In this document: piece after piece, positions 2,349 through 19,103 of the stretch | Layout: each line of letters opens with the position of its first letter | Position numbering within the stretch: the first letter of the stretch is position 1 | Assembly (NCBI GenBank): GCA_020723805.1 | Contig: DYID01000006.1 | Coordinates: 74,694 to 138,693, forward strand | Direction of reading: 5' to 3' | DNA from: Anaerolinea sp. | GTDB taxonomy: Bacteria > Chloroflexota > Anaerolineae > Anaerolineales > Villigracilaceae | Length of the DNA stretch: 64,000 nucleotides | The notes under the pieces: generated by a model | Databases searched by the model: none | Told to the model about the DNA's origin: nothing | The model's input: the letters and a program-made list of their open reading frames with translations, nothing else | Position numbers and translations under genes: made by a program

Positions 2349-3815
2349 ATGGACATCCTCAACTACATCAACGGCGCATGGATCAAACCAAACGCCCCCG
2401 AATACTTCGACGTAATCAACCCCGCCACGGGGCAGGTCATCGCCCGCACGCCGCTCGGCACGAAAGCCGATGTGGACGCGGCGGCGCGCGCGGCGGCGGA
2501 AGCCTTCCCTGGCTGGCGGCGGGTCCCAGTCAACGACCGCGTGCAGTACCTGTTCAAACTCCGCAACCTCCTGCGCGAACACATGGACGAAATCGCCAAA
2601 CTCATCACTGACGAGTGCGGCAAGACCTTCGAAGAATCCCGCGCCGAGATGGTGCGCGCCGTGGAAAACGTGGAAGTCGCCTGCGGGATGCCGCACTTGG
2701 GCAAGGGCGAGTTTGTGGAAGACATCGCCTCAGGCATTGACGAGACGATGATCCGCCAGCCGGTGGGCGTGTGCGCCACGATTGCGCCCTTCAACTTCCC
2801 CGGCATGATTCCCTTCTGGTACCTGCCCTACGCCCTCGCGGCGGGCAACACCTACATCGTCAAGCCTTCGGAAAAAGTGCCGATGACCATGCAGTACATC
2901 TTCAAACTCATCGAGCAGGTCGGTTTCCCGAAGGGCGTGATCAACCTAGTCAACGGCGCGAAGGAGGCGGTGGACGGCATTCTTGAGCATCCGACCATCC
3001 GCGCGATTACCTTCGTCGGTTCGACCAATGTGGCGAAGTACATCTACGCCACTGCCGCGGCGCACGGCAAGCGCGTACAGGCGCAGGGCGGGGCGAAGAA
3101 TCCCGTCATCATTTTGCCCGATGCCGATATGGAGATGGCGACGAAGATCGTCGCCGATTCCGCCTTCGGGTGCGCGGGGCAGCGCTGCCTGGCAGTTTCC
3201 CTCGCTGTGACGGTTGCCGAGGCGCGCAACACCTTCACCGAGTTGATCTGCGACGCCGCCTCCTCGCGCGTGGTCGGCTACGGCATGGACGCGGGCGTGC
3301 AGATGGGACCGGTCATCAATCAGGCGAGTAAAACGCGCATCGAGCAGTTGATCGGCATCGGGTCCGAGGGAGGCGCAAAGGTCTGCGTGGACGGGCGCGG
3401 GACGGTGGTCAAAGGCTACGAAAAAGGCTCCTTCGTCCGCCCGACGGTCATCGCCGATGTTCAGCCCGGAAGCGAACTCTGGAAGACGGAGGTCTTCGGT
3501 CCCGTGCTGGGGCTGATGCACGTCAACACCATCGAAGAGGCGATTGCGCTGGCGAACAGTCACATGTACGGCAATCAGGCGAGCCTGTTCACATCGAGCG
3601 GGGCGGCGGCGCGCAAGTTCAAGTACGAGGTCGAGGCGGGCAACATCGGCATCAACATCGGGGTTGCCGCGCCGATGGCGTTCTTCCCCTTCAGCGGCTG
3701 GAAGGACAGTTTCTTCGGCGACATGCACGGTCAAAGCATGGACGCGGTGGAGTTCTTCACGCAGAAGAAAGTGGTGGTGGAGCGCTGGCCCCGCGAGTGG
3801 ACGAGGAAGTTTTAA
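2349..3815 (+). CDS. mmsA: CoA-acylating (methyl)malonate-semialdehyde dehydrogenase
   Basis: [28 protein letters not shown] (catalytic Cys), EVFGP and [12 protein letters not shown] are typical of MmsA/IolA. Confidence 0.88.
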
Positions 3816-3899: not shown

Positions 3900-5255
3900 A
3901 TGACCTACGACAACGCACTCTCTTACGCAAACACTTGGCTCGACATCATCAAACAGGAGCGCTTCCCCGACGAGGCGCAAGCCAAATGGATCATCAACGA
4001 ATCCAAACACAACTTCGCCGAACACTTCAACCGCGGCTGGCTGGAATACCGCAAGTCGGTGACGGAGGCGGGCGACTGGGCGTCGGTGGAATGGTCGGGC
4101 AATGGCTCGGTCTTCACCGACGTGCTGGGGCGCAAATACATTGACTGGCTGGGCGGCTACGGCATGATGGACCTCGGCTGGGTTCATCCCGAAGTAGTCG
4201 AGGCGGTCATCGCGCAGGCAAAGCGCAGTCCCATGCCCTCGCAGGAATTGATTGACCCGCTGCGCGGCGTGCTTGCCAAACTTATGGCGGAAATCACGCC
4301 GGGCGATTTGAAGTACTCGTGGTTCGCCGCCAGCGGCACCGAAGCCATCGAAGCCGCCATCAAAATTGCCAAACTCTACACGGGCAAATCGGCGTTTATT
4401 GTGGCGGTCAAGGGCTTTCACGGCAAGACAATGGGCTCGCTCTCGATGATGGGCAAAGCCGATTACCGCGAACGCATGGGCGCGCTCTATGGCGGGCAGG
4501 TTTATCACGTGCCATTCGGCGATGCGGAGGCGGTGGAACGGCAGCTTGACATCTGCGAGAAGGTCGGCATCGGCGTGGCGGCGGTCATCTTCGAACCGAT
4601 TCAGGGCGAGGCGGGCGCGATTGTCCCGCCGGATGACTTCTGGTCCCGCATCCGCACCGCGACGAAGAAGCACGGGGTTTTGTTGATTGCGGATGAAGTG
4701 CAGACGGGTCTGGGGCGGACGGGGAAACTGTGGGGCGTGAATCACTGGGATGTCGTCCCCGACATCATCGCCACCGCCAAATCGCTCGGCGGCGGGGTGA
4801 TGCCCATCAGTGCGGTGACCACCACCGAGGAAATCTTCCAGCCGATGATGTACCCGAATCCGTTCATGCACACCACGACGACCGGCGGCGGCGCGTTAGC
4901 CTGCTCTGCCGCCATTGCCGCCATCCGCGTCACGCTTCGCGACCGACTTTGGGAGGGCGCGGCGGCGAAGGGCAGTTACCTCATCGAAAAAGTGAGCGAC
5001 CTGGCGGAGGAGTTTCCGCAAATCTACGAGAAGGTGACCGGCAAAGGCTTGCTCATCGGTCAGCACTTCCGTTCGCCGGCGCTCGGTTACAAGGTGGCGG
5101 CGGAGTTGTTCAAGCGCGGCGTGCTGGTGGCTGGCACGCTCACCAGTTCGCAAACCATCCGCATCGAGCCGCCGCTCATCATCACGCAGGCAGAAATTGA
5201 CGAAGGTTTGAACCGCCTGCGCGATGCGGTCGGCGCAGTGGCAAAGACATTGTGA
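3900..5255 (+). CDS. patA: Putrescine aminotransferase (class III PLP)
   Basis: The N-terminus (HFNRGWLEYRKSVT, DWLGGYG, SQELIDPLR) resembles PatA/YgjG; FHGKT, DEVQTG and the PLP lysine in AKSLGGG are present. Confidence 0.75.
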   Translation: MTYDNALSYANTWLDIIKQERFPDEAQAKWIINESKHNFAEHFNRGWLEYRKSVTEAGDWASVEWSGNGSVFTDVLGRKYIDWLGGYGMMDLGWVHPEVVEAVIAQAKRSPMPSQELIDPLRGVLAKLMAEITPGDLKYSWFAASGTEAIEAAIKIAKLYTGKSAFIVAVKGFHGKTMGSLSMMGKADYRERMGALYGGQVYHVPFGDAEAVERQLDICEKVGIGVAAVIFEPIQGEAGAIVPPDDFWSRIRTATKKHGVLLIADEVQTGLGRTGKLWGVNHWDVVPDIIATAKSLGGGVMPISAVTTTEEIFQPMMYPNPFMHTTTTGGGALACSAAIAAIRVTLRDRLWEGAAAKGSYLIEKVSDLAEEFPQIYEKVTGKGLLIGQHFRSPALGYKVAAELFKRGVLVAGTLTSSQTIRIEPPLIITQAEIDEGLNRLRDAVGAVAKTL

Positions 5256-5368: not shown

Positions 5369-6487
5369 ATGCGAAGTGAGTTTGCAGTCGAACTACGGGA
5401 TGTCGTAAAACAATTTGTCACACCAGAGGGGAATCTTTTGAACGCCGTGGATCATGTCACCATGCAGATCAAGAACGGCGAGTTCTTCTCGATGCTGGGT
5501 TCGTCGGGCTGCGGCAAGACCACCTCCCTGCGCATGATCGCCGGCTTCGAGTGGCCCACCGCGGGGGAGGTGTATATCGAGGGCAAGCCAATGGGGCATA
5601 CGCCGCCCTTCCAGCGCAAGGTCAATACCGTGTTTCAAAACTATGCGCTCTTCCAGCACATGACGGTCTATCAAAACGTGGCGTTTGGGTTGGAGATGGA
5701 AGGAGCGGACAAGAGCGAAATCGAAAAGCGCGTCAAACGCGCCCTGGAGATGGTTCAACTGACCGGCATGGAGCGGCGTAAACCCCGTCAGCTCTCCGGC
5801 GGGCAGCAGCAGCGCGTGGCGGTGGCGCGGGCGCTGGTCAAACTGCCGGATGTGCTGCTCCTCGACGAACCGCTTGGCGCGCTGGACTTGAAACTGCGCA
5901 AGGAAATGCAGTTGGAACTCAAGGCGCTCCAGAAGGAAGTTGGCATCACTTTTATCTATGTCACCCACGACCAGGAAGAAGCCCTCACCATGTCGGACCG
6001 CATTGCGGTGATGAGCAAGGGCAAGGTCATGCAAATGGGCACGCCGGTCGAAATCTACGAGCGCCCCGCCAACAAGTTCGTGGCAGACTTTATCGGCGAG
6101 TCGAATTTTCTGGATGGAAAGATCAAGTCCATTTCGGCGGATGAAGCGAGCGTCTTTGTCCCTGCCCTGAACGCCGAGTTGAGCGGTGTGCCGATGTCGA
6201 AGGATTTGGTCAACGGCGAAGAAGTCGTCATTTCCATCCGCCCGGAGAAGATCCGCATCGTGGAGTACGACGACGGGAAGGAAGGAATTTTCCGCGCAAA
6301 AATCATCAACTCCATCTACATCGGTTCCGATACGCATGTGTATCTCGACTGCAACGGGGTGCGGTTGAAGGTCATGGAACAGAACCGCATTTCCCGCCTC
6401 GACCCGTTCTCCTTCTATCACAAAGATCAGCAGGTCGGTGTGTACCTGATGCCGGAAAACACGCTGGTCTTGAAAAAGGAGGCGTGA
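5369..6487 (+). CDS. potA: Polyamine ABC transporter ATP-binding subunit
   Basis: Walker [24 protein letters not shown]-terminal TOBE region. Confidence 0.9.
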
Positions 6488-6488
6488 C

Positions 6489-7412
6489 ATGCTTCAACGG
6501 CTTCGTGAAAACAAAGCCTGGCAGGGCACACTGCTGGCGCTTCCGACTACCTTGTGGCTGTTTGTTCTGTTGGTGATTCCGCTTTTCCTCACGCTGGTTG
6601 TGAGTTTTGGCAGGCGCAGCCCGGATGGCGGCGTAATTTACGGCTTCTCCTTTCACAACTACCTTCGGTTATTGGGCTACAGCACCGATTGTCCGGGCGG
6701 GCAAGCCGCCTGCTTCGATCCGCTCTATGCCGGCATTTTGTGGCGCTCGCTCACGCTGGCATTCTGGACGACGGTGATTGTCATTTTGCTCGCCTACCCG
6801 CTGGCGTACTTCATTGCCCGCTCGCACCCCCGCCGCCGCAATACCTTCCTCATGCTGGTGCTCGTACCGCTGTGGACCAACTTCGTCATCCGCGTCTATG
6901 CCTGGATGATGCTCCTGCGCGAGCAGGGCGTCATCAATGGCGTGCTGGGCTGGATTGCGGCACAGTTCGGCATTCCTTTTCAGCCGCTTCAAATGCTCTA
7001 CACGCCCGGCGCGGTGCTGGTCGGCATGGTGTACGAGTTTCTGCCGTTCATGATTTTGCCCATTTTCACTTCGCTGGAAAAAATCGAACTGCCGCTGTAT
7101 GAAGCCGCCGCCGATTTGGGAGCAAACCCGTTCCGCACCTTCCTGCGTGTGACGCTGCCGCTCTCCATGCCCGGCGTGGTGGCAGGCACCATCCTGGTCT
7201 TCATCCCGGTCATGGGGACGTTCATCGTTTCGGACTTGCTGGGCGGCAAACAGGTGATTTTGGTGGGCAACCTCATCCAGAATCAATTCCTTTCGGCGCG
7301 CGACCCAACCTTCGGTTCTGCCGCCTCGTTGATCCTGATGATCATGACCCTCATCGTGACCTACTTCTACACCCGTAAATTCGGATTCGGAGAGGAGATT
7401 ATCGCGGCATGA
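6489..7412 (+). CDS. potB: Polyamine ABC transporter permease
   Basis: EAA loop (EAAADLGA); PotB-type [15 protein letters not shown]. Confidence 0.88.
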
Positions 7413-8290
7413 ACCCCTACCGCCGGCATCCTTTCATCCGTGTTGCCACCGTTCTGGTGTACCTCTTCCTGTACACGCCCATTGTCGTGCTGGTGTTGTA
7501 TGCCTTCAATGCCTCGCGCACGAATATTCTGTTCGAGGGTTTCATTCCTTCGTTTGGACCTCTCCAAACCAGCGGCAGTCTCGTCACCCAAAGCCCGTGC
7601 GGACCCTTTCACTGGTTTTGCGAACTCTCACGCAACCGCGAGGTCGGCGCGGCGGCGCGCAACACGCTGACCATTGCCTTCATCTCCACCCTGACCTCCA
7701 CGGTCATCGGCACGATGGCGGCGCTCGCGCTCCAGCGCTATAACTTTCGGATGAAACCCTTCTCGCAAATTTTCCTCTATATCCCCATCGTCATCCCTGA
7801 AATCGTCATGGGAATTGGAATACTGACCCTCTTCAGCCAGCTATTCGGCGTTTTGAACAGCGCTCTTGGCTTGGCAGGCGATTCCCGCCTCTCCCTCGGA
7901 CTGGGGACGGTCATCGTTTCCCACATCGCCTTCAGCGTCCCCTTTGTGACTTTGGTGGTGCAGGCGCGTTTGCAGGGGTTCGATAAATCCTACGAGGAAG
8001 CCGCCATGGATTTGGGCGCAAATGAACTGGTCACGTTTTGGCGCGTCACCTTCCCGATGATTTTGCCCGGTGTGCTTTCGGGCGCACTGCTGGCTTTTAC
8101 CCTTTCGCTGGATGACTTCGTCATCACCTTCTTTACCACCGGTCCCGGCGCGACCACCCTGCCGATTTATGTGTATGGTCTCTTGCGGCGCATCATCACT
8201 CCGCAGGTCAACGCCCTGTCCACCATCTGGATTGCCATCGTGTTGACGGCGGTCATTCTCCTGCAACGACTGCAAAACCGCGAAGCCTGA
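7409..8290 (+). CDS. potC: Polyamine ABC transporter permease
   Basis: EEAAMDLGA and [11 protein letters not shown]; overlaps the potB stop (ATGA). Confidence 0.88.
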
Positions 8291-8360
8291 AACTTGTTGT
8301 GAAAACCACGGCGAAGTCCGTGTGTTTCAAAAACCAAACAAATCTTCTAAGGAGGAAGAG

Positions 8361-9500
8361 ATGAGCAAAAACCTGTTGTTCAAACTGACGGTGCTTCTGA
8401 CCATGATGAGTCTCGCGCTGGCAGCCTGCGGAGGTGGAGGCGGCGATGAAACTACCCAGAAGGTCACATCGTCTGGCTTTGTCTGCCCCGAGCCGGAGCA
8501 GAAAATGGAGGTTTCTTCTCAGGAGTTGAACCTCTTTGTGTGGACTGAATACATTCCAGCCGAATGGAAGGAATGTTTCGAATTGGTTTATGGTGTCAAA
8601 ATCAATCACGATGAGTATTCCAGCAATGAGGAAATGTACGCCAAGCTTTCAGCAGGCGGCACCAACTACGACCTCGTCCAGCCGACCGATTACATCGTTG
8701 GTTTAATGATCCGTCAGGGCATGCTCCAGAAACTGGATCATGGCAAACTCCCCATGTCCAGTTTCGACCCGAACTATATGGACCTGCCCTTCGACCCGGG
8801 CAACGAATACACCATCCCCTATCAGGCTGGCACGGACGCCATCATCTACAATGCCGACAAGGTGGAGAATCCTCCCAAGTCCTTTGCCGACTTGTGGAAT
8901 CCGGAATACGCCGGGCGCATGGTCTTCCTCGATGACTCGCGCGTCATCATCGGCATGACCCTGCTGACTCTCGGCTACGATGTCAACACCACCGACCCCG
9001 CCCAGTTGGAGGAAGCCAAGGTTAAACTGGCGGAACTGGTGCCGAACGTCAAACTCTTCGACAGCGACAGCCCCAAGACTGCCCTCATCGCCGGCGACGT
9101 GGACCTCGGCATCACCTGGACGGGCGAAGCCTTTCTTGCCGCTCAGGAAAACCCTGCCTTCACCTACGTCTATCCGACTGAAGGGGCAATCCTCTGGCAG
9201 GACAACTGGGCGATTCCTGTCGGCGCTCCGCATCTGGATGCCGCTTACGCCTGGATTAACTACACCATGCAGGGCAACATGTTCTGGATGATGCTGCGCG
9301 ATTTCCCCTACATCAATCCCAGTCTCGCCGCGCTGGAATATGCCAAAGAAAACCAGCCTGACCTCTATAATGCCTACATGGGTTCGCCCATTACCAACGT
9401 CCCGCAAGAGGCGATTGACGCGGGTCACCGCATTGAGGATGTCGGTGACGCCACGCCGCTCTACGACCGAATTTGGACGGAAGTCAAGGGCGGGGAATAA
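8361..9500 (+). CDS. potD: Spermidine/putrescine-binding lipoprotein
   Basis: AGGAGG RBS before ATG 8361; lipobox LAAC; WTEY, YSSNEEMYAK and WQDNWAIP are PotD/PotF motifs. Confidence 0.85.
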   Translation: MSKNLLFKLTVLLTMMSLALAACGGGGGDETTQKVTSSGFVCPEPEQKMEVSSQELNLFVWTEYIPAEWKECFELVYGVKINHDEYSSNEEMYAKLSAGGTNYDLVQPTDYIVGLMIRQGMLQKLDHGKLPMSSFDPNYMDLPFDPGNEYTIPYQAGTDAIIYNADKVENPPKSFADLWNPEYAGRMVFLDDSRVIIGMTLLTLGYDVNTTDPAQLEEAKVKLAELVPNVKLFDSDSPKTALIAGDVDLGITWTGEAFLAAQENPAFTYVYPTEGAILWQDNWAIPVGAPHLDAAYAWINYTMQGNMFWMMLRDFPYINPSLAALEYAKENQPDLYNAYMGSPITNVPQEAIDAGHRIEDVGDATPLYDRIWTEVKGGE

Positions 9501-9648: not shown

Positions 9649-9654
9649 ATGGCT

Positions 9655-10122
9655 ATGGAAGAAAAAACTGCTATTCAAACAACCCAGCCGTTAGACGACA
9701 TTGACCGCGCCGTCATCGAAGCCATGCGCAAGGACGGGCGGACGGCGTTCTCTCAAATTGCCGAACAGCTCAACGTCTCGCCGGGCATGATTCGCCTGCG
9801 CTACAACCGCCTGGTCGAACTCGGTTACCTCAAGGTGGTCGCCGTCACCAATCCTTTGATGATGGGCAAGCGCACCATGGCAATGATCGGCGTGCGCACT
9901 GACGGAAGCAAAATGCTCGAGGTGGCGAATCAATTAAGCGACTTTGATGAAGTCGTTTATGTCGTTGTTGTCAGCGGCAGGTATGACTTGATGATCGAGG
10001 TCTTTTGCCGCGACCACGAAGACCTGCTCAACTTCCTCACCGAAAAACTTGCCAAAGTGGATGGCGTCCGCGAGACGGAATCGTTCATGCATCTGAAGAT
10101 TGTGAAGGAGATTTACTTTTAG
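9655..10122 (+). CDS. Lrp/AsnC family transcriptional regulator
   Basis: LDDIDRAVI..MRKDGRTAFSQIAEQLNVS HTH; C-terminal SGRYDL RAM domain; alternative start at 9649. Confidence 0.9.
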   Translation: MEEKTAIQTTQPLDDIDRAVIEAMRKDGRTAFSQIAEQLNVSPGMIRLRYNRLVELGYLKVVAVTNPLMMGKRTMAMIGVRTDGSKMLEVANQLSDFDEVVYVVVVSGRYDLMIEVFCRDHEDLLNFLTEKLAKVDGVRETESFMHLKIVKEIYF

Positions 10123-10222
10123 AGTCTCGAGTCTCATAGTCTGATGGAGTGATCGCTATAAGAAAGTGTTCGATAAGGCGATAAGACTATAAGACTATAA
10201 GACTATAAGACTATGAGACTAG
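10123..10222. repeat. 7/8-mer periodic inverted-repeat element
   Basis: Left arm agtctcgagtctcatagtct; right arm (ATAAGACT)x4 + ATGAGACT at 10181-10220. Confidence 0.75.
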
Positions 10223-10283: not shown

Positions 10284-11510
10284 ATGAAAGTATTACTCGT
10301 AGGAGTGGGGGGAGTAGGGGAGGCAATTGCGGTGCTTGCCAAGCCGCAGCCCTGGCTGGAGCAGATGGTTTTGTGTGATTACAACAAGGCACGCGCTGAA
10401 GAGGTGCAGAAAAAACTGGGCGGCGATGTGAGCCGCTTCCCCGTCGAGTTTGTTGACGCGGGACAGCAGGAGATGGTCGAGGCGTTGGCGCGCAAGTATG
10501 GCGTGGACCTCATCATGAACGCTGTGGATCCCATCTTCAACGAAAAAATCTTCGACGCCGCTTACAACGTCGGCGCGACCTACATGGACATGGCGATGAC
10601 CCTCTCCAAGCCGCACCCGACCGATCCCTTCCGCAAACCGGGCGTTAAACTGGGCGATTATCAATTCGCCAAATCGGCTGATTGGGAAAAGAAGGGACTG
10701 CTGGCGCTGGTGGGCATCGGCGTGGAACCCGGCATGGTGGACGTGTTTGCCCGTTACGCGCAGGATCACCTTTTTGACGAAATCGAGGAGATGGGCGTGC
10801 GCGATGGCGCCAACCTGGAAATTGAGGGCTACGAATTCGCTCCCAACTTTTCGATTTGGACGACCATCGAAGAGTGCCTCAACCCGCCTGTAATTTGGGA
10901 AAAGGACAAGGGCTGGTACACCACCGAGCCGTTCTCTGAGCCTGAAGTGTTCGAATTCCCCGAAGGGATTGGCAAGATCGAAGTGGTCAACGTGGAGCAT
11001 GAGGAAGTGCTGCTCATGCCGCGCTGGATCAACACCAAACGCGTCACCTTCAAATACGGCTTGGGCGAGAAGTTCATCAACGTGCTGAAAACGCTCAAGA
11101 TGCTGGGCTTGGACAATAAGGAGAAAATCAACGTCAAGGGCGTGATGGTTGCGCCGCGCGACGTGGTCGCTGCCTGCCTGCCCGACCCCGCCCACCTCGG
11201 CGACAAGATGAAGGGCAAGACCTGTGCGGGATTGTGGGTGAGGGGAAAGAAAGACGGAAAGATGAAAGAGGTGTATTTGTATCAGGTCACAGACAACGAG
11301 GAATCCATGAAGCGCTGGGGATGTCAGGCGGTTGTCTCGCAGACGGCGTTCAGCGCAGTCATTGCGATGGAACTGCTGGAGCAGGGTGTGTGGAAAGGGA
11401 GCGGTGTGCTGGGTCCCGAAGCCTTTCCGTCCGAGCCGTTCATGGAGCGGATGGAAAAGTATGGCTTCCCATATGGCGTCAGAGAGATGACAAAGGAAGC
11501 CGCTGTTTGA
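10284..11510 (+). CDS. Saccharopine dehydrogenase family oxidoreductase (carboxyspermidine-dehydrogenase-like)
   Basis: GxGGVG Rossmann motif, YMDMA, GVEPG, EHEEV and VAPRDVV. Confidence 0.8.
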   Translation: MKVLLVGVGGVGEAIAVLAKPQPWLEQMVLCDYNKARAEEVQKKLGGDVSRFPVEFVDAGQQEMVEALARKYGVDLIMNAVDPIFNEKIFDAAYNVGATYMDMAMTLSKPHPTDPFRKPGVKLGDYQFAKSADWEKKGLLALVGIGVEPGMVDVFARYAQDHLFDEIEEMGVRDGANLEIEGYEFAPNFSIWTTIEECLNPPVIWEKDKGWYTTEPFSEPEVFEFPEGIGKIEVVNVEHEEVLLMPRWINTKRVTFKYGLGEKFINVLKTLKMLGLDNKEKINVKGVMVAPRDVVAACLPDPAHLGDKMKGKTCAGLWVRGKKDGKMKEVYLYQVTDNEESMKRWGCQAVVSQTAFSAVIAMELLEQGVWKGSGVLGPEAFPSEPFMERMEKYGFPYGVREMTKEAAV

Positions 11511-11640: not shown

Positions 11641-11675
11641 GTAGGGACGCAGAATCTTTCGAGGTCTGCGTCCCC
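11641..11675. repeat. GTAG-family REP-like hairpin
   Basis: GTA-GGGACGCAGA...TCTGCGTCCC. Confidence 0.6.
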
Positions 11676-11700
11676 TTTTGTCTGTTTCGGCAAGGTCAGG

Positions 11701-11729
11701 TTGTGATTCCCTCATCCCGCCTGTATAAT
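11701..11729 (+). promoter_or_regulatory. Sigma70-type promoter upstream of AOR1
   Basis: TTGTGA-17 nt-TATAAT, followed by a GGAGGAGG RBS before ATG 11761. Confidence 0.6.
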
Positions 11730-11760
11730 TGAAAAAACTCGATACTTGGAGGAGGTCGCC

Positions 11761-13662
11761 ATGCCATACGGTTACAATGGCAAAATTCTGCATGTGGATT
11801 TGACGAAGGGTGAATTGACGGTGGAGGAGCCGCCCGAGTCGTTCTATCGCAAGTATTTGGGCGGGAGCGCGATGGGTATGCATTACATCCTGCGCGACAT
11901 GCCCAAAGGCGCCGACCCGCTGGGACCTGAAAATGTGCTGACGCTGTTTACAGGCGTGACGACGGGCGCGCCGATCTCGGGTCAGAGCCGCCTGAACGCC
12001 AACGCCAAATCGCCCATCAGCGGCGGCATCGGCGACTCGCAAAGCGGCGGGTTTTTCCCTGCCGAGTTGAAGTTCGCAGGCTTCGACGGTATTGTGATTA
12101 AAGGCAAGTCGCCCAAGCCTGTGTATCTGGCGATTGTGGATGGCAAAGCCGAACTGCGCGACGCCTCGCATTTGATGGGAAAGATCACGGGGGAGGTGGA
12201 CGATATCCTTCACAAGGAAGTGGATCCGAAAGCCGAAATCCTTCAGCATGGTCCCGCCGCCGAAAAGGGCGTGCTGTTCTCGTCGCTGGTGAGCATGTCC
12301 AATCGCCACAACGGACGCACGGGCATGGGCTTGGTGATGGCTTCCAAGAATCTCAAGGCGGTTGTCGTGCGCGGGACGAAGAAGGTGGAGGTCGCCGACC
12401 CCAAGGCGCTGACCGAATTGAACCGCATCGGTCCCAAAGCCATCCCCGAAAACGGCGACATGGACGGGCTGGCAAAGTTCGGCACGGCGGTTGTGGTGTT
12501 GTTCAACAATACAATCGGCTGTCTGCCGACCCGTAACTACAACGAAGGTCAGTTCGAGGGGTGTGAAGCCATCAGCGGCGAGAAGATGGCAGAGACCATC
12601 CTCAAGGAACGTGATACTTGCTACGCCTGCGTGGTCAAGTGCAAGCGCGTGGTTGAGGTCAAGGAAGGGGCGTACAAGGTGGACCCGCGCTATGGCGGTC
12701 CCGAATACGAAACGCTCGGCACGTTCGGCTCGTATTGCGGCGTGAGCGATTTAGCGGCGGTCTCGCTGGCGAATCAAATCTGCAACGAGTACGGCGTGGA
12801 TACCATCGCCTGCGGCGCGACGATTGCCTTTGCGATGGAGTGCTACGAAAAGGGCATCATCACTAAAGAGCAGACCGACGGCATCGAATTGAAATTCGGT
12901 GACGCCGACGCAATGCTGGCGGCGTTGAACAAAATCGTCAAAGGCGAGGGCGAGCTCGGCAAAACGCTCGGCATGGGGTCGGAACGCGCGGCGAAGAAGT
13001 GGGGCAACGGCGCGGACGAGTGCCTCATCACGGTCAAGGGTGCAGAAGCGCCCGCGCACATGCCTCAGGCGAAGCGTTCGCTCGGTCTCATCTATGCGGT
13101 CAATCCGTTCGGCGCGGATCACCAATCCAGCGAACACGACCCCTACTACGAAGAAGGCGTTGGAGACTTCAACCTAAACCGCCTCAAGCAAATCGGACTT
13201 GGTTCGCCTCAGCCCGCCTACAGCCTCACGGAGGAAAAAGTCCGCTTCGCTTACGAGACCGAGGTCTTCTACTCCATGCTCGACTCGCTCGAACTCTGTC
13301 AGTTTGTCTGGGGTCCCACGTGGACGCTCTACGACGGCGAACAGACCGCCGCCATGCTGCGCGCGGTCACAGGCTGGGATGTAACCCTCGACGAATTGAT
13401 GGAAGTCGGACGCCGCCGCCTGAACCTCTTCCGCGTGTTCAACGCCCGCGAGGGATTCGGGCGCAAGGACGACAAACTGCCGAAGAAGTTCTTCAAACAA
13501 TTGCAGGGGACGGGTCCCACTGCTGGCTTCGCGCTGACTCACGAAGAGATTGATTCCGCCATAGACGCCTACTACAAGATGGCAGGCTGGACCGCCGACG
13601 GCGTGCCGACCGCCGAGACGCTCAAGAAACACGGCGTCGAGTGGGCGGCGGAGTATCTCTAG
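11761..13662 (+). CDS. aor: Aldehyde:ferredoxin oxidoreductase family protein (W/Mo-bis-pterin, AOR1)
   Basis: GYNGKILHVDL, AKSP..GG, GLVMASKNLKA, CYACVVKC [4Fe-4S] motif, PEYETL, CNEYGVD, FNAREG, DKLPKKF. Confidence 0.88.
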   Translation: MPYGYNGKILHVDLTKGELTVEEPPESFYRKYLGGSAMGMHYILRDMPKGADPLGPENVLTLFTGVTTGAPISGQSRLNANAKSPISGGIGDSQSGGFFPAELKFAGFDGIVIKGKSPKPVYLAIVDGKAELRDASHLMGKITGEVDDILHKEVDPKAEILQHGPAAEKGVLFSSLVSMSNRHNGRTGMGLVMASKNLKAVVVRGTKKVEVADPKALTELNRIGPKAIPENGDMDGLAKFGTAVVVLFNNTIGCLPTRNYNEGQFEGCEAISGEKMAETILKERDTCYACVVKCKRVVEVKEGAYKVDPRYGGPEYETLGTFGSYCGVSDLAAVSLANQICNEYGVDTIACGATIAFAMECYEKGIITKEQTDGIELKFGDADAMLAALNKIVKGEGELGKTLGMGSERAAKKWGNGADECLITVKGAEAPAHMPQAKRSLGLIYAVNPFGADHQSSEHDPYYEEGVGDFNLNRLKQIGLGSPQPAYSLTEEKVRFAYETEVFYSMLDSLELCQFVWGPTWTLYDGEQTAAMLRAVTGWDVTLDELMEVGRRRLNLFRVFNAREGFGRKDDKLPKKFFKQLQGTGPTAGFALTHEEIDSAIDAYYKMAGWTADGVPTAETLKKHGVEWAAEYL

Positions 13663-14535: not shown

Positions 14536-14541
14536 GTCTTG

Positions 14542-14568
14542 AATTACCAATTACCAATTACCAATTAC
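14542..14568. repeat. CCAATTA heptamer arm (right arm of the filled element)
   Basis: aattaccaattaccaattaccaattac; its reverse complement matches 13662-13683 at 21/22. Confidence 0.8.
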
Positions 14569-14586
14569 TTCCCAAGAAAGAACCCC

Positions 14587-15870
14587 ATGACCAACTCCCT
14601 CTACACCGAAAACTTCCCCCACATGACTCCCGCGTGGAGCCGCATCTTCAACTTCGTCGCCGACCGCGCCGAAGGCTCCTACATCTACACCGACGACGGA
14701 CGCAAACTGCTCGACTTCACCTGCGGCATCGGCGTGACGAACACGGGTCACTGTCACCCGAAAGTCGTCGAAGCGATTCGCGAGCAGGCGGGGAACTTTA
14801 TCCACGCGCAGGCGAATCTCGTCATCCACAAGCCGATGCTGCAACTCATCGAAGAACTGCGCAAGATCGTCCCGCCTTCGATTGACAGTTTCTTCTTCGC
14901 CAACTCAGGCGCGGAGGCGCTGGAAAACGCGGTCAAGATTGCGAAGGTGGCGACGGGACGCCCGAACGTCATCGTCTTCAGCGGCTCGTTCCACGGGCGG
15001 ACTCATGCCACCATGGCGCTGACCACGTCCAAGACGATTTACCGCGCGGGCTTTGCGCCGCTCATGGCGGGCGTGTACGTCGCGCCGTTCCCCTATGCCT
15101 TCCAACTCAAAATGACGGAAGAGGAAGCCAGCCAATACGCGCTGGAGCAGTTGGAGCATCTGCTCGCCTCGCAGACCGCGCCGAAGGAAACCGCCGCCAT
15201 CATCCTTGAAACCGTTTTGGGGGAAGGCGGCTACATCGTCCCGCCCGCCTCGTTCATGAAGGGTCTGCGCGAGATTTGCGACAAGCACGGTATCTTGCTG
15301 GTCCTCGACGAAGTCCAATCGGGCTTTGGTCGCACGGGCAAATGGTTCGCCTTCGAGCATTTCGGCATCGTGCCAGACATCATGACGGTTGCGAAAGGAA
15401 TCGCTTCGGGCATGCCGCTCTCAGGCGTGTTCACCCGCACCGAAATCATGAAGAAACTCGACACAGGCTCCATCGGCGGGACGTATGGCGGGAACGCCGT
15501 CGCCTGCGCCGCGGGAGTCGCCACCATCCGCGCGATGCGGGAAGAGAAGATGCTCGAAAACGCCGCCGAGCGCGGCATCCAACTGATGACGGGACTCCGC
15601 AAATTGCAGGAGGAATATCCGCAAATTGGCGACGTGCGCGGACTGGGGCTGATGGTCGGCACCGAGTTTGTGGTGGATGGAAGCCAGGTAAAAGCCAAGC
15701 CGCTCGTCAAGGAAATCATCCACAAAGCGGAAGAGAAAGGCTTGCTCCTGCTTTCCTGCGGCACCTACGACAACACCGTCCGCTGGATCCCGCCGCTGAA
15801 TGTGACGAGCGGGCAGATCAATGATGGGCTGAATATTTTTAGCGAAGCGTTGAAGGAAACCATAAAATAA
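14587..15870 (+). CDS. gabT: 4-aminobutyrate aminotransferase-like class III aminotransferase
   Basis: DFTCGIGVTNTGH, NSGAEALENAVK, FHGRT, DEVQSGFGRTG, AKGIASG and GGTYGGN; start moved past the repeat to ATG 14587. Confidence 0.7.
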   Translation: MTNSLYTENFPHMTPAWSRIFNFVADRAEGSYIYTDDGRKLLDFTCGIGVTNTGHCHPKVVEAIREQAGNFIHAQANLVIHKPMLQLIEELRKIVPPSIDSFFFANSGAEALENAVKIAKVATGRPNVIVFSGSFHGRTHATMALTTSKTIYRAGFAPLMAGVYVAPFPYAFQLKMTEEEASQYALEQLEHLLASQTAPKETAAIILETVLGEGGYIVPPASFMKGLREICDKHGILLVLDEVQSGFGRTGKWFAFEHFGIVPDIMTVAKGIASGMPLSGVFTRTEIMKKLDTGSIGGTYGGNAVACAAGVATIRAMREEKMLENAAERGIQLMTGLRKLQEEYPQIGDVRGLGLMVGTEFVVDGSQVKAKPLVKEIIHKAEEKGLLLLSCGTYDNTVRWIPPLNVTSGQINDGLNIFSEALKETIK

Positions 15871-15932: not shown

Positions 15933-17291
15933 ATGTCAAACACTCTCGATAGAAACAAACTCACCCAACTCCTCCAGCAAGAAGAACAACTCTTCCACAA
16001 AACCCATCCCAAATCCTACGAACTCTACCAGCGGGCGCGCAAGTCGCTGCATGGCGGCGTGCCGATGCTGTGGATGATCCGCTGGGCAGGTTCGTTTCCC
16101 GTCTTCGTCAAAGAGGCGAAAGGCGCGCGCTTCACCGACGTGGACGGCAACTCCTACATTGACTTCTGCCTCGGCGACACGGGCGCGATGACAGGTCACA
16201 GCCCCGACGCGACCATTGAAGCCATCAATGAGCAGATTCAAAAAGGCATCACGCTCATGCTCCCCTATGAGGATGTCATCTGGGTCGGCGAAGAACTCCA
16301 GCGCCGTTTCGGTCTGCCCTATTGGCAGTTCGCCCTCACCGCCACCGACGCCAACCGCTTCGCCCTGCGCATGGCGCGCCTCATCACGGGTCGTCCCAAA
16401 ATCCTCGTCTTCAACTACTGCTATCACGGCTCGGTGGACGAGACCTTCATCTCGCTCGACGAAGAAGGCACGCCCATTCCGCGCCCCAACAACATGGGTC
16501 CGCAAATTGACCCGCGCCTCACCAGCAAGGTCATCGAGTTCAACGACGTTGCCGCGCTCGAAACCGCCCTCTCCGCCCGCGATGTCGCCGCGGTCCTCGC
16601 TGAACCCGCCATGACCAACATCGGCATCATCCACCCCGAACCCGGCTACCACGACGCGCTGCGGGAATTGACTCGCAAGTACGGGACCTATCTCATCATT
16701 GACGAGACTCATACCATCTGCGCGGGTCCCGGCGGATACACCGCCTCATTCGGACTTCAGCCTGATTTCCTGACCATCGGCAAGCCCCTCGCTGGAGGCG
16801 TCCCCGCCGCGGTCTATGGCTTCACCGAAGAAGTGAGCCGCGCCTTCGCCGCCAAACTCGCCATCAACGACGCCGACGTGGGCGGCATCGGCGGGACTCT
16901 GGCGGGCAACGCCCTCTCGGTCGCCGCGATGAAAGCCACCTTGCAAAACGTCCTGACCGAGGACTTTTACAAAAAAGCCATCGCCTTGCAGGAAAAATTC
17001 ACCGCAGGCGTGGAGGGCGTCATCAAGGAATTCAACCTGCCGTGGATTGTCAAACGTCTCGGCAACCGCTCCGAATACTGGTTCCGTCCCACGCCTCCGC
17101 GCAACGGTGGGGAAGCGCACGCCGCCGTGGACCCCGAACTCGACCGCTACATGCACCTCTTCGCCCTCAACCGCGGCATCCTCATGACCCCCTTCCACAA
17201 CATGGCGCTCATCTCCGCCGACACCACCGAAGCGGACGTGGATTACCACACGAAGGTGTTCCGCGAGGCGGTGGCGAGTTTGTTTGGATAG
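15933..17291 (+). CDS. Class III aminotransferase, glutamate-1-semialdehyde aminomutase-like subgroup, substrate unknown
   Basis: DVDGNSYIDFCLGD, YHG, IDETHT, PLP lysine in GKPLAGG, GGTLAGN. Confidence 0.75.
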   Translation: MSNTLDRNKLTQLLQQEEQLFHKTHPKSYELYQRARKSLHGGVPMLWMIRWAGSFPVFVKEAKGARFTDVDGNSYIDFCLGDTGAMTGHSPDATIEAINEQIQKGITLMLPYEDVIWVGEELQRRFGLPYWQFALTATDANRFALRMARLITGRPKILVFNYCYHGSVDETFISLDEEGTPIPRPNNMGPQIDPRLTSKVIEFNDVAALETALSARDVAAVLAEPAMTNIGIIHPEPGYHDALRELTRKYGTYLIIDETHTICAGPGGYTASFGLQPDFLTIGKPLAGGVPAAVYGFTEEVSRAFAAKLAINDADVGGIGGTLAGNALSVAAMKATLQNVLTEDFYKKAIALQEKFTAGVEGVIKEFNLPWIVKRLGNRSEYWFRPTPPRNGGEAHAAVDPELDRYMHLFALNRGILMTPFHNMALISADTTEADVDYHTKVFREAVASLFG

Positions 17292-17292
17292 A

Positions 17293-17359
17293 GTAGGTCG
17301 AAGGTCAAGAGTCGAAAGTCTACCTTGTGACCTTCGACCTTCGACCTTCGACTTTTGAC
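17293..17359. repeat. Heptamer-periodic inverted-repeat element (TCGAAGG type), empty form
   Basis: gtcgaaggtcaagagtcgaaagtc / gaccttcgaccttcgaccttcgacttttgac. Confidence 0.8.
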
Positions 17360-17375
17360 TCGTTTGGAGAGAAAC

Positions 17376-19103
17376 ATGACAGAACACACATCCCAAATCT
17401 GGCGCATCAACGCACGCACGCGTGAACTCAAGCGCGAACCCGTCCCCGCCTCCTGGCAGCGGCTTGGCGGGCGCGGACTCATCGCCCGCATCCTGCTCGA
17501 CGAAGTGGACGCGACGACCGCCCCCCTCGGCGCGGGGAACAAACTCATCTTCGCGCCCGGTCTGCTCGTCGGTCACATGCTCTCGTCCACCGACCGCATC
17601 TCCATCGGCGGCAAGTCTCCGCTCACGGGCGGAGTCAAGGAAGCCAACGCAGGCGGGCGGACTGGCTTGCACATGGCGACGATGGGCATCCACGCCCTCA
17701 TCATCGAAGACCAGCCTGCAGACGATTCGTTGTGGGTACTGCATCTCTCACTCAACGGCGCAAAATGGGAAAAAGCGGATGACTTGACAGGCTTGGGCGT
17801 GTACGCTTCCGCCGAAAAATTGCTCGCGCGTTACGGCGATAAAGTCGCCATCGCGCTTATCGGTCCCGGCGGCGAGATGCGGATGAAGTCGGCGGGCATC
17901 CAGAATCTCGACAAGGACAAAATCCCCTCGCGCATCGCGGCGCGCGGCGGACTCGGCGCGGTGATGGGCTCGAAGCGGATCAAAGCCATCGTGTTCGATA
18001 ATGCCGGTGGGCAGAAGCCGCCCATCGTGAGTCCCGAAGCGTTCAAGTCCGCGCAGAAGGATTACACCAAAGCGCTGATGGATCATCCGCAGACGAAAAC
18101 GTATCACGATTACGGCACCGCCGCGATGACGCAATTGACCCAGCGGTTTGCCGCGATCCCTGTCCGCAACTTTTCGCGCGGCACATTCGACGACGTGGAA
18201 AAGATCGGCGGGGAGGCGCTGCGCGAGTTTACGCTCACGCGCGGCAAACCATCCGATCCCTCGCACGCCTGCATGGCGGGATGCACCATCAAATGCTCGA
18301 ACGTGTTCGGCGGAGAGGATGGCAAGGTCATCGTTTCGCCGCTCGAATATGAAACCATCGGCTTGATGGGCTCGAACCTCGACATCAACTCGCTCGACAG
18401 CATCGGGCGGCTGAATTGGCAGGTCAACGACCTGGGACTCGACTCGATTGAAGTCGGCGCGGCGCTCGGCGTCGCGGCGGAGGCGGGCTTGATGAAGTGG
18501 GGGAGCGAAGGAGATGCACTGAGGCTGATCAATGAGATTCGTAACGGCACGGAACTGGGGCGCATCCTCGGCGACGGCGCGGTTGCCACAGGGAAGAAGT
18601 ACAACATCGAGCGCGTCCCCGCTGTGAAGGGACAGGCGATGTCCGCCTATGAACCGCGCTCCATCAAAGGCACGGGCGTGACCTATGCCACCACGCCGCA
18701 GGGCGCCGACCATACCTGCGGACTCACCATCCGCGCCCAAATCAACCACCTTGACCCGAACGTGCAAATCGAGGTCTCGCGCAACGCGCAGTTCAACATG
18801 GCGGGTTACGACACCCTCGGCGCGTGTATCTTCGCGGGCTTCGGCTACGCCGCGACTCCCGATGGTGTGGTGAAACGTCTGCTCGCGGCGCGCTACGGCT
18901 GGGACGACCTGCCCGACAACATCCTCCAGGAACTCGGCAAACAGACCATCAAAATGGAGCGCGAGTTCAACCGCCGCGCAGGGTTCACCGCCAAAGACGA
19001 CCGTCTCCCCGCATGGATGACGAAAGAGCCGCTGCCCGAAACCAACCACGTCTTCGACGTGAGCGAAGACGCGCTCGACCACATCTTCGATGGGATCGAA
19101 TAA
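17376..19103 (+). CDS. aor: Aldehyde:ferredoxin oxidoreductase family protein (AOR2)
   Basis: GGRGL, GKSPLTGGVKEANAGG, AARGGLGAVMGSKRIKA, HACMAGCTIKC, LEYET, DLGLDSI, FNRRAG. Confidence 0.88.
   Translation: MTEHTSQIWRINARTRELKREPVPASWQRLGGRGLIARILLDEVDATTAPLGAGNKLIFAPGLLVGHMLSSTDRISIGGKSPLTGGVKEANAGGRTGLHMATMGIHALIIEDQPADDSLWVLHLSLNGAKWEKADDLTGLGVYASAEKLLARYGDKVAIALIGPGGEMRMKSAGIQNLDKDKIPSRIAARGGLGAVMGSKRIKAIVFDNAGGQKPPIVSPEAFKSAQKDYTKALMDHPQTKTYHDYGTAAMTQLTQRFAAIPVRNFSRGTFDDVEKIGGEALREFTLTRGKPSDPSHACMAGCTIKCSNVFGGEDGKVIVSPLEYETIGLMGSNLDINSLDSIGRLNWQVNDLGLDSIEVGAALGVAAEAGLMKWGSEGDALRLINEIRNGTELGRILGDGAVATGKKYNIERVPAVKGQAMSAYEPRSIKGTGVTYATTPQGADHTCGLTIRAQINHLDPNVQIEVSRNAQFNMAGYDTLGACIFAGFGYAATPDGVVKRLLAARYGWDDLPDNILQELGKQTIKMEREFNRRAGFTAKDDRLPAWMTKEPLPETNHVFDVSEDALDHIFDGIE

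Follow-up and report, generated by a model that had tools for sequence, protein, structure and literature searches.

The stretch of DNA considered here, referred to as the window, comprises 64,000 nucleotides from Anaerolinea sp. (contig DYID01000006.1, positions 74,694 to 138,693), and the gene in question, at 10284-11510, encodes a protein that resembles carboxyspermidine dehydrogenase (CASDH). The gene is proposed, at about an even chance, to encode a NAD+-linked dehydrogenase by which spermidine-type polyamines are split at the secondary amine into an aminoaldehyde and a diamine. The protein has the CASDH fold and retains its catalytic triad, has lost the NADPH-phosphate site, falls into a separate clade, and is encoded in a conserved catabolic neighborhood, and the decarboxylase that would be its biosynthetic partner was not found. 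We infer the substrate, the side of cleavage, the direction of flux, and the preference for NAD+. The gene and the sites within it are as follows:

10284-11510, plus strand: CASDH-like dehydrogenase of 408 amino acids
10377-10385, plus strand: codons of D32-Y33-N34, a NAD-type signature at the end of strand β2, aligned to S34-R35-T36 of the B. fragilis enzyme
10587-10667, plus strand: β5-α5 loop, residues 102-128, which exceeds that of CASDH by about 8 residues in the alignment to the B. fragilis enzyme
10845-10874, plus strand: motif NFSIWTTIEE, residues 188-197, aligned in place of NFNPEIN(L/I)RE
10998-11006, plus strand: retained catalytic triad His239-Glu240-Glu241, aligned to H228-E229-E230 of the B. 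fragilis enzyme

A ribosome-binding site (GGAG..AAAGGA) lies 5-15 nt 5′ of the open reading frame, and homologs found by database search align starting at residue 1; the names of near-identical database proteins point to Chloroflexota, order Anaerolineales. The domains Sacchrp_dh_NADP (PF03435) and Sacchrp_dh_C (PF16653) are the only Pfam matches of the protein, and its sole NCBIfam match is the carboxynorspermidine synthase model NF043000, with a score of 199.5 bits and thus below the equivalog cut-off of 800. A sequence search of the PDB returned 4INA, 4RL6, 8DEB, and 8H4Z as the only solved relatives, all of the CASDH type (E 1e-58 to 1e-36); by its Foldseek title, 8H4Z is the CASDH of Helicobacter pylori. 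The AlphaFold (AF2) model, built with 31 homologs, has a pLDDT of 95.5 and shows the three-domain fold with an N-terminal Rossmann domain. In Foldseek, it matches the CASDH structures 4INA, 8H52, and 8DEB at TM 0.87-0.90. Identity to the CASDH structures is 24-31% in the structural alignment, and identity to representatives of the classical clade is 29-30%. Beyond CASDH, the next best structure is L-lysine 6-dehydrogenase (LysDH, 3ABI; TM 0.72, 18% identity), and saccharopine enzymes (TM 0.67-0.70, 13-14% identity) and homospermidine synthase (TM 0.65-0.69, 14-16% identity) are also recovered. No saccharopine enzyme was found at E 0.001 in the PDB sequence search with the protein. The ribosome-binding site and the homologs that align from the first residue show the open reading frame to be real. 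An earlier note on this DNA had called the gene carboxyspermidine-dehydrogenase-like, and the Pfam domains and the CASDH fold bear this out.

The protein was aligned to the CASDH of B. fragilis (BfCASDH), and the alignment was read against three published studies (PMC10413350; PMC10599626; PMC13683441). The catalytic triad described for BfCASDH (PMC10413350) is retained. In addition to the triad, the protein keeps D174, the counterpart of the Asp to which the three-carbon unit's amino group binds, and E197, a Glu deep in the active site that aligns to the conserved Glu188 of BfCASDH. With Synechocystis residue numbers mapped through the B. fragilis numbering at an assumed offset of one, the counterparts of H239-E240-E241, D174, and E197 in Synechocystis CAPADH would be residues whose mutation cut or abolished activity (PMC10599626). 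Within the clade of the window protein, H239 is invariant and E240 and E241 are nearly invariant.

The cofactor site differs from that of CASDH. An acidic residue at the end of strand β2 is the textbook determinant of NAD binding. In the AF2 model, this strand consists of residues 27-32 with D32 at its end; D32 shows little or no variation in the clade, and an Asp stands at the end of β2 in every non-classical row of the alignment. The NADPH 2′-phosphate site of CASDH, Ser34-Arg35-Thr36, is not kept. In BfCASDH, the 2′-phosphate of NADP+ is held by Thr36, by Ser34 via a water molecule, by Lys39, and by an Arg printed as Arg45, and the enzyme shows no turnover with NADH (PMC10413350). When counted along the BfCASDH sequence, position 45 is Lys and position 35 is Arg, and the Arg printed as Arg45 is read here as Arg35. 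On the basis of these residues, the CASDH-like protein appears to have switched from NADPH to NAD and would prefer NAD+.

An active-site segment and the recognition loop are also altered. The motif NFNPEIN(L/I)RE is common to all four solved CASDH proteins, and the longer CASDH segment F-A-T-N-F-N-P-E-I-N-(L/I)-R-E reads FAPNFSIWTTIEE in the window protein, in which only N-F and the final Glu are kept. Arg187 of BfCASDH, which directly precedes the active-site Glu, is Glu or Asp in this clade (Glu in the window protein), and the Ser/Thr of the proton relay proposed for CASDH is replaced by Val152. The β5-α5 loop of CASDH, CAPADH, and CANSDH has been proposed to decide whether agmatine, putrescine, or diaminopropane is accepted (PMC13683441), and in the clade this loop carries conserved motifs of its own, PHP and GVKLGD. 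A basic character of the longer loop was considered and dropped, as only K122 and D125 are conserved there across orthologs. The changed states of the cofactor site, the active site, and the loop are conserved in the orthologs.

A profile-free search of 1.8 billion cluster representatives yielded 343 relatives at E 1e-30 or better, and ten distant relatives bear only the generic cluster name 'saccharopine dehydrogenase'. A phylogeny against CASDH had been put forward earlier as a check. In the maximum-likelihood tree the representatives of classical CASDH group together in one clade, and the window protein stands apart from them in a separate clade of 17 members (SH-aLRT 100, stem length 0.71). 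The members of this clade occur in Chloroflexota, Actinomycetota, Bacillota, and Spirochaetota; the orthologs of Streptomyces, Nonomuraea, Nakamurella, Anoxynatronum (Clostridia), and a spirochaete are 60-65% identical, and identity within the genus is 75-90%. In public records, thousands of homologs are labeled 'saccharopine dehydrogenase' and some 'ATP-binding protein'. In two metagenome-assembled genomes of Chloroflexota, a second, tandem paralog that is 56-59% identical lies directly 3′ of the ortholog (L082:11198-12400 and L059 at about 1420-2593). These tandem paralogs form a well-supported branch of their own inside the clade and may act on a different polyamine. The genome of the window also encodes a second Sacchrp_dh_NADP-domain protein of 351 amino acids (contig 15, 35333-35686; L002:1489-2544), without any NCBIfam match.

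The earlier note had reported that no decarboxylase partner (NspC/CASDC) is present in the window and had proposed a genome search for nspC; both the observation and the search now extend to the whole genome. No match to the nspC model TIGR01047 was obtained in the genome (3.69 Mb, 97.2% complete), and its one decarboxylase of the alanine-racemase fold (fold III, Orn_Arg_deC_N) is LysA, above the curated cut-off. Likewise, nspC was found in none of 61 related genomes, of which 41 have the ortholog, and in none of five genomes outside the phylum that also have it (two from Streptomyces and one each from Anoxynatronum, Nakamurella, and an uncultured actinomycete). Among 14 control genomes, the CASDH model matches only D. 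radiodurans and B. thetaiotaomicron, and the same two alone exceed the nspC cut-off; the search therefore detects the normal pairing. Moreover, a SpeD gene lies beside two SpeE genes on contig 20 of the same genome, and spermidine synthesis is thus independent of the CASDH-like gene. These two tandem genes of the spermidine-synthase family adjoin the AdoMet decarboxylase gene at 142272-144359 of the contig, and a third open frame of 875 amino acids with a Spermine_synth domain is present on contig 31. The source organism may make more than one polyamine.

The genes around the CASDH-like gene all lie on the plus strand, in the order (methyl)malonate-semialdehyde dehydrogenase (MMSDH), PatA-like aminotransferase, PotABCD, Lrp, CASDH-like dehydrogenase, aldehyde:ferredoxin oxidoreductase (AOR), a small DUF6585 gene, GabT-like aminotransferase, a third aminotransferase, and a second AOR:

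2349-3815, plus strand: CoA-acylating MMSDH (TIGR01722, 556.2 bits, above the 448.5 cut-off)
3900-5255, plus strand: putrescine-aminotransferase-like class-III aminotransferase (NF008570, 553.7 bits; cut-off 612)
5369-9500, plus strand: PotA, PotB, PotC, and PotD-like polyamine ABC importer (NCBIfam best matches, all equivalog scores below cut-off)
9649-10122, plus strand: Lrp/AsnC-family regulator directly upstream of the CASDH-like gene (Pfam AsnC_trans_reg and HTH_24)
11644-11687, plus strand: terminator-like hairpin with a T tract after the CASDH-like gene, read directly in the sequence; a consensus scan passed over it, apparently because of a loop above its size limit
11746-13662, plus strand: AOR1 (AFOR_N and AFOR_C)
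14539-15870, plus strand: GABA-aminotransferase-like class-III aminotransferase (PRK08117, 535.6 bits; TIGR00700, 419 bits; both below cut-off)
15933-17291, plus strand: third class-III aminotransferase, PRK07046 type (NF005453, 654.6 bits, above the 425 cut-off)
17355-19103, plus strand: AOR2, divergent (AFOR_N and AFOR_C)

The Pfam and NCBIfam matches, all on one strand, confirm the earlier description of the gene as one that sits among importers and catabolic enzymes behind an Lrp regulator. The PotD-like protein scores 233 bits with the PotD model versus 114 with PotF. The open frame of AOR1 starts at TTG 11746, and the ATG at 11761, which is preceded by GGAGGAGG, is the probable true start. 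Between the Lrp gene and the CASDH-like gene, positions 10183-10222 hold a tandem repeat, AAGACTAT, in four exact copies and one degenerate copy, and words related to GAGTCTC occur just upstream of it.

The neighborhood was counted over species representatives with loci of at least 12 kb, and the aldehyde dehydrogenase (ALDH) homologs in the counts are those matched with the MMSDH of the window:

Chloroflexota, 32 loci: class-III aminotransferase in 28, PotABC in 21, AOR (homologs of AOR1 or AOR2) in 20, ALDH homolog in 18
Actinomycetota, 27 loci: class-III aminotransferase in 5, PotABC in 6, AOR in 0, ALDH homolog in 8

A homolog of the Lrp gene lies upstream of the ortholog in 19 of the 32 Chloroflexota loci, and an AOR1 homolog adjoins the ortholog in many Chloroflexota loci. 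At least 11 congeneric genomes keep the gene order of the window wholly or largely; PotBCD is only about 40% identical to the window set in about half of them. Two PotABCD sets thus occupy the same position before the CASDH-like gene within one genus, with PotBCD about 80-97% identical to the window in one group of loci (L042, L044, L045, L046, L049, and L053) versus about 37-47% in the other (L041, L047, L048, and L052), and the flanking enzymes are 75-98% identical whichever set is present. This suggests that the importer was replaced in place within the genus.

Outside the Chloroflexota, the partners of the ortholog are of a similar kind. In Anoxynatronum buryatiense (L122:260-10283), a sigma54 activator with PAS/GAF domains, the ortholog, a 4Fe-4S ferredoxin, an AOR, a sodium:solute symporter, and agmatinase lie together with a protein that has a copper-amine-oxidase N-terminal domain. 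The AOR beside this ortholog is unrelated, being only 33% identical to the window AOR. In this cultured anaerobe, the cluster is a candidate version of the pathway linked to agmatine or aminopropylagmatine. In an uncultured actinomycete (L116), the gene of an aminobutyraldehyde dehydrogenase, matched above the curated cut-off, stops 4 bp short of the ortholog; a GABA aminotransferase, likewise above cut-off, comes next. In Nakamurella (L132), the order is Lrp, PotD, PotA, PotB, PotC, aminobutyraldehyde dehydrogenase, FAD oxidoreductase, and ortholog. In two further Actinomycetota loci (L123 and L130), this FAD oxidoreductase of the DAO family is likewise flanked by the aminobutyraldehyde dehydrogenase and the CASDH-like ortholog, and its best matches, which are weak, are a putative aminophosphonate oxidoreductase and L-pipecolate oxidase. 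For aldehyde oxidation, the orthologs of Chloroflexota and Clostridia thus have a ferredoxin-linked AOR nearby, and those of Actinomycetota an aminobutyraldehyde dehydrogenase. Given this repeated adjacency, the product of the CASDH-like enzyme is most plausibly an aminoaldehyde.

In the proposed mechanism, the chemistry of the CASDH family would run in reverse. An imported aminopropyl polyamine, most likely spermidine, would be oxidized at its secondary amine to a Schiff base, whose hydrolysis would release an aminoaldehyde and a diamine. If the three-carbon side stems from the aldehyde partner, as it does in CASDH, putrescine and 3-aminopropanal would be formed; this cleavage on the aminopropyl side is the weaker part of the proposal and is drawn from the CASDH reaction. 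The neighboring enzymes would draw the reaction toward cleavage: the aminoaldehydes would be oxidized to β-alanine and γ-aminobutyrate (GABA) by AOR, or in the aerobes by aminobutyraldehyde dehydrogenase, the three aminotransferases would take off the primary amino groups, and MMSDH and the second AOR would feed the malonate and succinate semialdehydes into central metabolism. The three aminotransferases and the CoA-acylating malonate-semialdehyde dehydrogenase indicate that both a C4 branch (putrescine, GABA, and succinate) and a C3 branch (3-aminopropanal, β-alanine, and acetyl-CoA) are provided for, and the presence of MMSDH would fit the latter. Cleavage of the secondary amine is the only step in the window cluster for which there is no other candidate enzyme.

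Spermidine dehydrogenase SpdH (EC 1.5.99.6) and the FAD polyamine oxidases open the catabolism of spermidine by cleaving it into a diamine and an aminoaldehyde. The overall reaction proposed for the window protein is the same, and the resemblance is in the reaction only: these enzymes have flavin or heme, an unrelated fold, and O2 or other acceptors in place of NAD+, and show no homology to the window protein, in which only the two saccharopine-dehydrogenase domains, and no flavin or heme amine-oxidase fold, are matched in Pfam. Downstream, the PatA-PatD-GabT-GabD pathway of E. coli resembles the window in having a PatA-like aminotransferase, aminoaldehyde oxidation, and a GabT-like aminotransferase. 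Unlike the window, however, the E. coli pathway is without a triamine enzyme, and the window has AOR in place of PatD and GabD and, in addition, the CASDH-like enzyme and MMSDH.

Within the fold superfamily, the CASDH, CANSDH, and CAPADH enzymes (8DEB, 8H4Z/8H50/8H52, 4INA, and 4RL6) share with the window protein the fold, the His-Glu-Glu triad, and the aminopropyl-binding Asp and Glu, and the C-N bond chemistry presumably follows the same mechanism of Schiff-base formation and hydride transfer. In contrast to them, the window protein has Asp-Tyr-Asn, NFSIWTTIEE, Val152, and the longer recognition loop, lies in its own clade without a decarboxylase partner in the genomes checked, and is encoded in a catabolic rather than a biosynthetic neighborhood. 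The saccharopine dehydrogenase domain of human AASS (5L78 and 5O1P), an enzyme of lysine catabolism, is a structural relative that Foldseek recovers in a form solved with NAD+ bound. This domain cleaves a secondary amine oxidatively, to an amine and a semialdehyde, in the direction proposed here, and it is therefore a superfamily precedent for NAD+-linked catabolic cleavage of a secondary amine. On the other hand, it matches the window protein at TM of about 0.68 and 14% identity, its substrate is an amino acid conjugate, and the active-site arrangement differs between saccharopine enzymes and the CASDH type (PMC10413350). Bacterial homospermidine synthase (4XQ9 and 6Y87) belongs to the same superfamily, was solved with NAD bound, and acts on polyamine-related amines, but has about 470 amino acids and a TM of about 0.68. 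LysDH is likewise a member of the superfamily that acts on a polyamine-related amine. It uses NAD+.

Several observations weigh against the proposal of polyamine cleavage. Activity data for any member of the clade were not found in the literature searched. The equilibria of such reactions favor amine formation, and flux would depend on coupling to aldehyde oxidation. The linkage to polyamine genes is frequent and not universal: unrelated genes surround orthologs of about 70% identity in some other genera of Anaerolineales, and the same holds for most of the Streptomyces orthologs. With the hairpin described above and a promoter-like site at 11701-11729, 5′ of AOR1 in a consensus scan, the CASDH-like gene is perhaps transcribed alone and may, as a weak possibility, be a transcription unit of its own behind the Lrp gene. 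Moreover, eight flavin proteins of the Amino_oxidase family are encoded in the same genome, and one of them could be a polyamine oxidase.

The alternative that survives best, itself unlikely, is a deaminating primary-amine dehydrogenase like LysDH, which would oxidize putrescine, agmatine, or a related diamine with NAD+ to an aminoaldehyde and ammonia. LysDH is the next-best structural relative after CASDH (TM 0.72), the neighboring aminobutyraldehyde dehydrogenase is just as compatible with the aminoaldehyde formed in this way, and the Anoxynatronum stretch holds AOR, symporter, and agmatinase with no aminotransferase among the genes scanned there. However, LysDH is only 18% identical and is reported to lack the His-Glu-Glu triad (PMC10413350), and the window already has three aminotransferases, one of them PatA-like, which leaves only the cleavage of the secondary amine without an enzyme.

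A decarboxylase-independent polyamine synthase, in which an aminoaldehyde such as 4-aminobutanal from the PatA-like enzyme would be reductively condensed with a diamine to homospermidine or spermidine, is considered rather improbable. It would run in the thermodynamically favored direction, which is that of all characterized CASDH relatives (PMC10413350; PMC10599626); a PatA-like gene is often adjacent, conservation within the genus is very strong (75-90% identity), and a DHS/SpeY gene was not found in the genome, where bacterial homospermidine synthase was not the object of a separate search. On the contrary, the cofactor site is of the NAD type and not of the NADPH type, SpeD and SpeE are already in the genome, and the partners are importers and catabolic enzymes (AOR, aminobutyraldehyde dehydrogenase, GabT, and MMSDH) that would compete for the aldehyde.

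Improbable to a slightly greater degree is a carboxylated secondary amine as the substrate, either saccharopine, an opine, or imported carboxyspermidine or carboxyaminopropylagmatine, from which an amino-acid semialdehyde would be released. The label 'saccharopine dehydrogenase' in public records, a LysE-type exporter and a LysR regulator among the Streptomyces neighbors, and the additional match of the GabT-like neighbor to a 2-aminoadipate transaminase model, below cut-off, are in line with such a substrate. In fold, however, the protein is much less similar to saccharopine enzymes (TM about 0.7, 13-14% identity), the adjoining transporters are of the PotABCD type, and the change of the Arg before the active-site Glu to Glu/Asp would make the pocket more acidic and so suit a carboxylate-free substrate. 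Finally, it is highly improbable that the gene encodes a standard biosynthetic CASDH, CANSDH, or CAPADH with a decarboxylase that was missed through incomplete assembly or strong divergence. The top NCBIfam model and the top PDB relatives are CASDH enzymes; however, nspC was not found in 66 genomes, many of them more than 95% complete, with positive controls, and the protein reaches only one fourth of the NF043000 cut-off, has neither the NADPH site nor the NFNPEIN(L/I)RE motif, and lies in a separate clade.

The cleavage of spermidine-type polyamines is therefore kept as the favored reading. The earlier note had proposed that the enzyme may run oxidatively as an oxygen-independent entry step. 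The catabolic, oxidative, and decarboxylase-free part of that idea is strengthened by the failure to find nspC, the NAD-type Asp, and the catabolic linkage in three phyla, whereas oxygen-independence does not stand as the reason for the clade. The clade is not confined to anaerobes, given its close orthologs in aerobes such as Streptomyces, Nakamurella, and Nonomuraea, and 'oxygen-independent' describes the chemistry. As a wider and tentative proposal, held at slightly under an even chance, the clade would represent a NAD+-dependent spermidine (aminopropyl-polyamine) dehydrogenase of anaerobic and aerobic breakdown across Chloroflexota, Actinomycetota, Bacillota, and Spirochaetota, which would have derived from CASDH through a change of cofactor and the loss of a substrate that bears a carboxylate, and which in anaerobes would be coupled to ferredoxin-linked AOR.

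Known bacterial routes split spermidine by flavin oxidases, which need O2, by flavin/heme spermidine dehydrogenase, or after prior acetylation or glutamylation. To our knowledge, the mineralization of triamines by strict anaerobes is poorly understood, and the CASDH family is known so far only for polyamine synthesis. No paper on a catabolic or NAD-linked CASDH relative was found in the literature searched, which lacked most subscription journals and is not proof of novelty; within it, polyamine breakdown is an activity not yet described for the family. The hypothesis is directly testable, because close orthologs are present in cultured strains of Streptomyces, Nakamurella, Nonomuraea, and Anoxynatronum. 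If it is true, many public records labeled 'saccharopine dehydrogenase' or 'ATP-binding protein' would be corrected, and pyridine-nucleotide-linked cleavage would constitute an oxygen-free entry step into polyamine breakdown and a new enzyme activity in the CASDH family.

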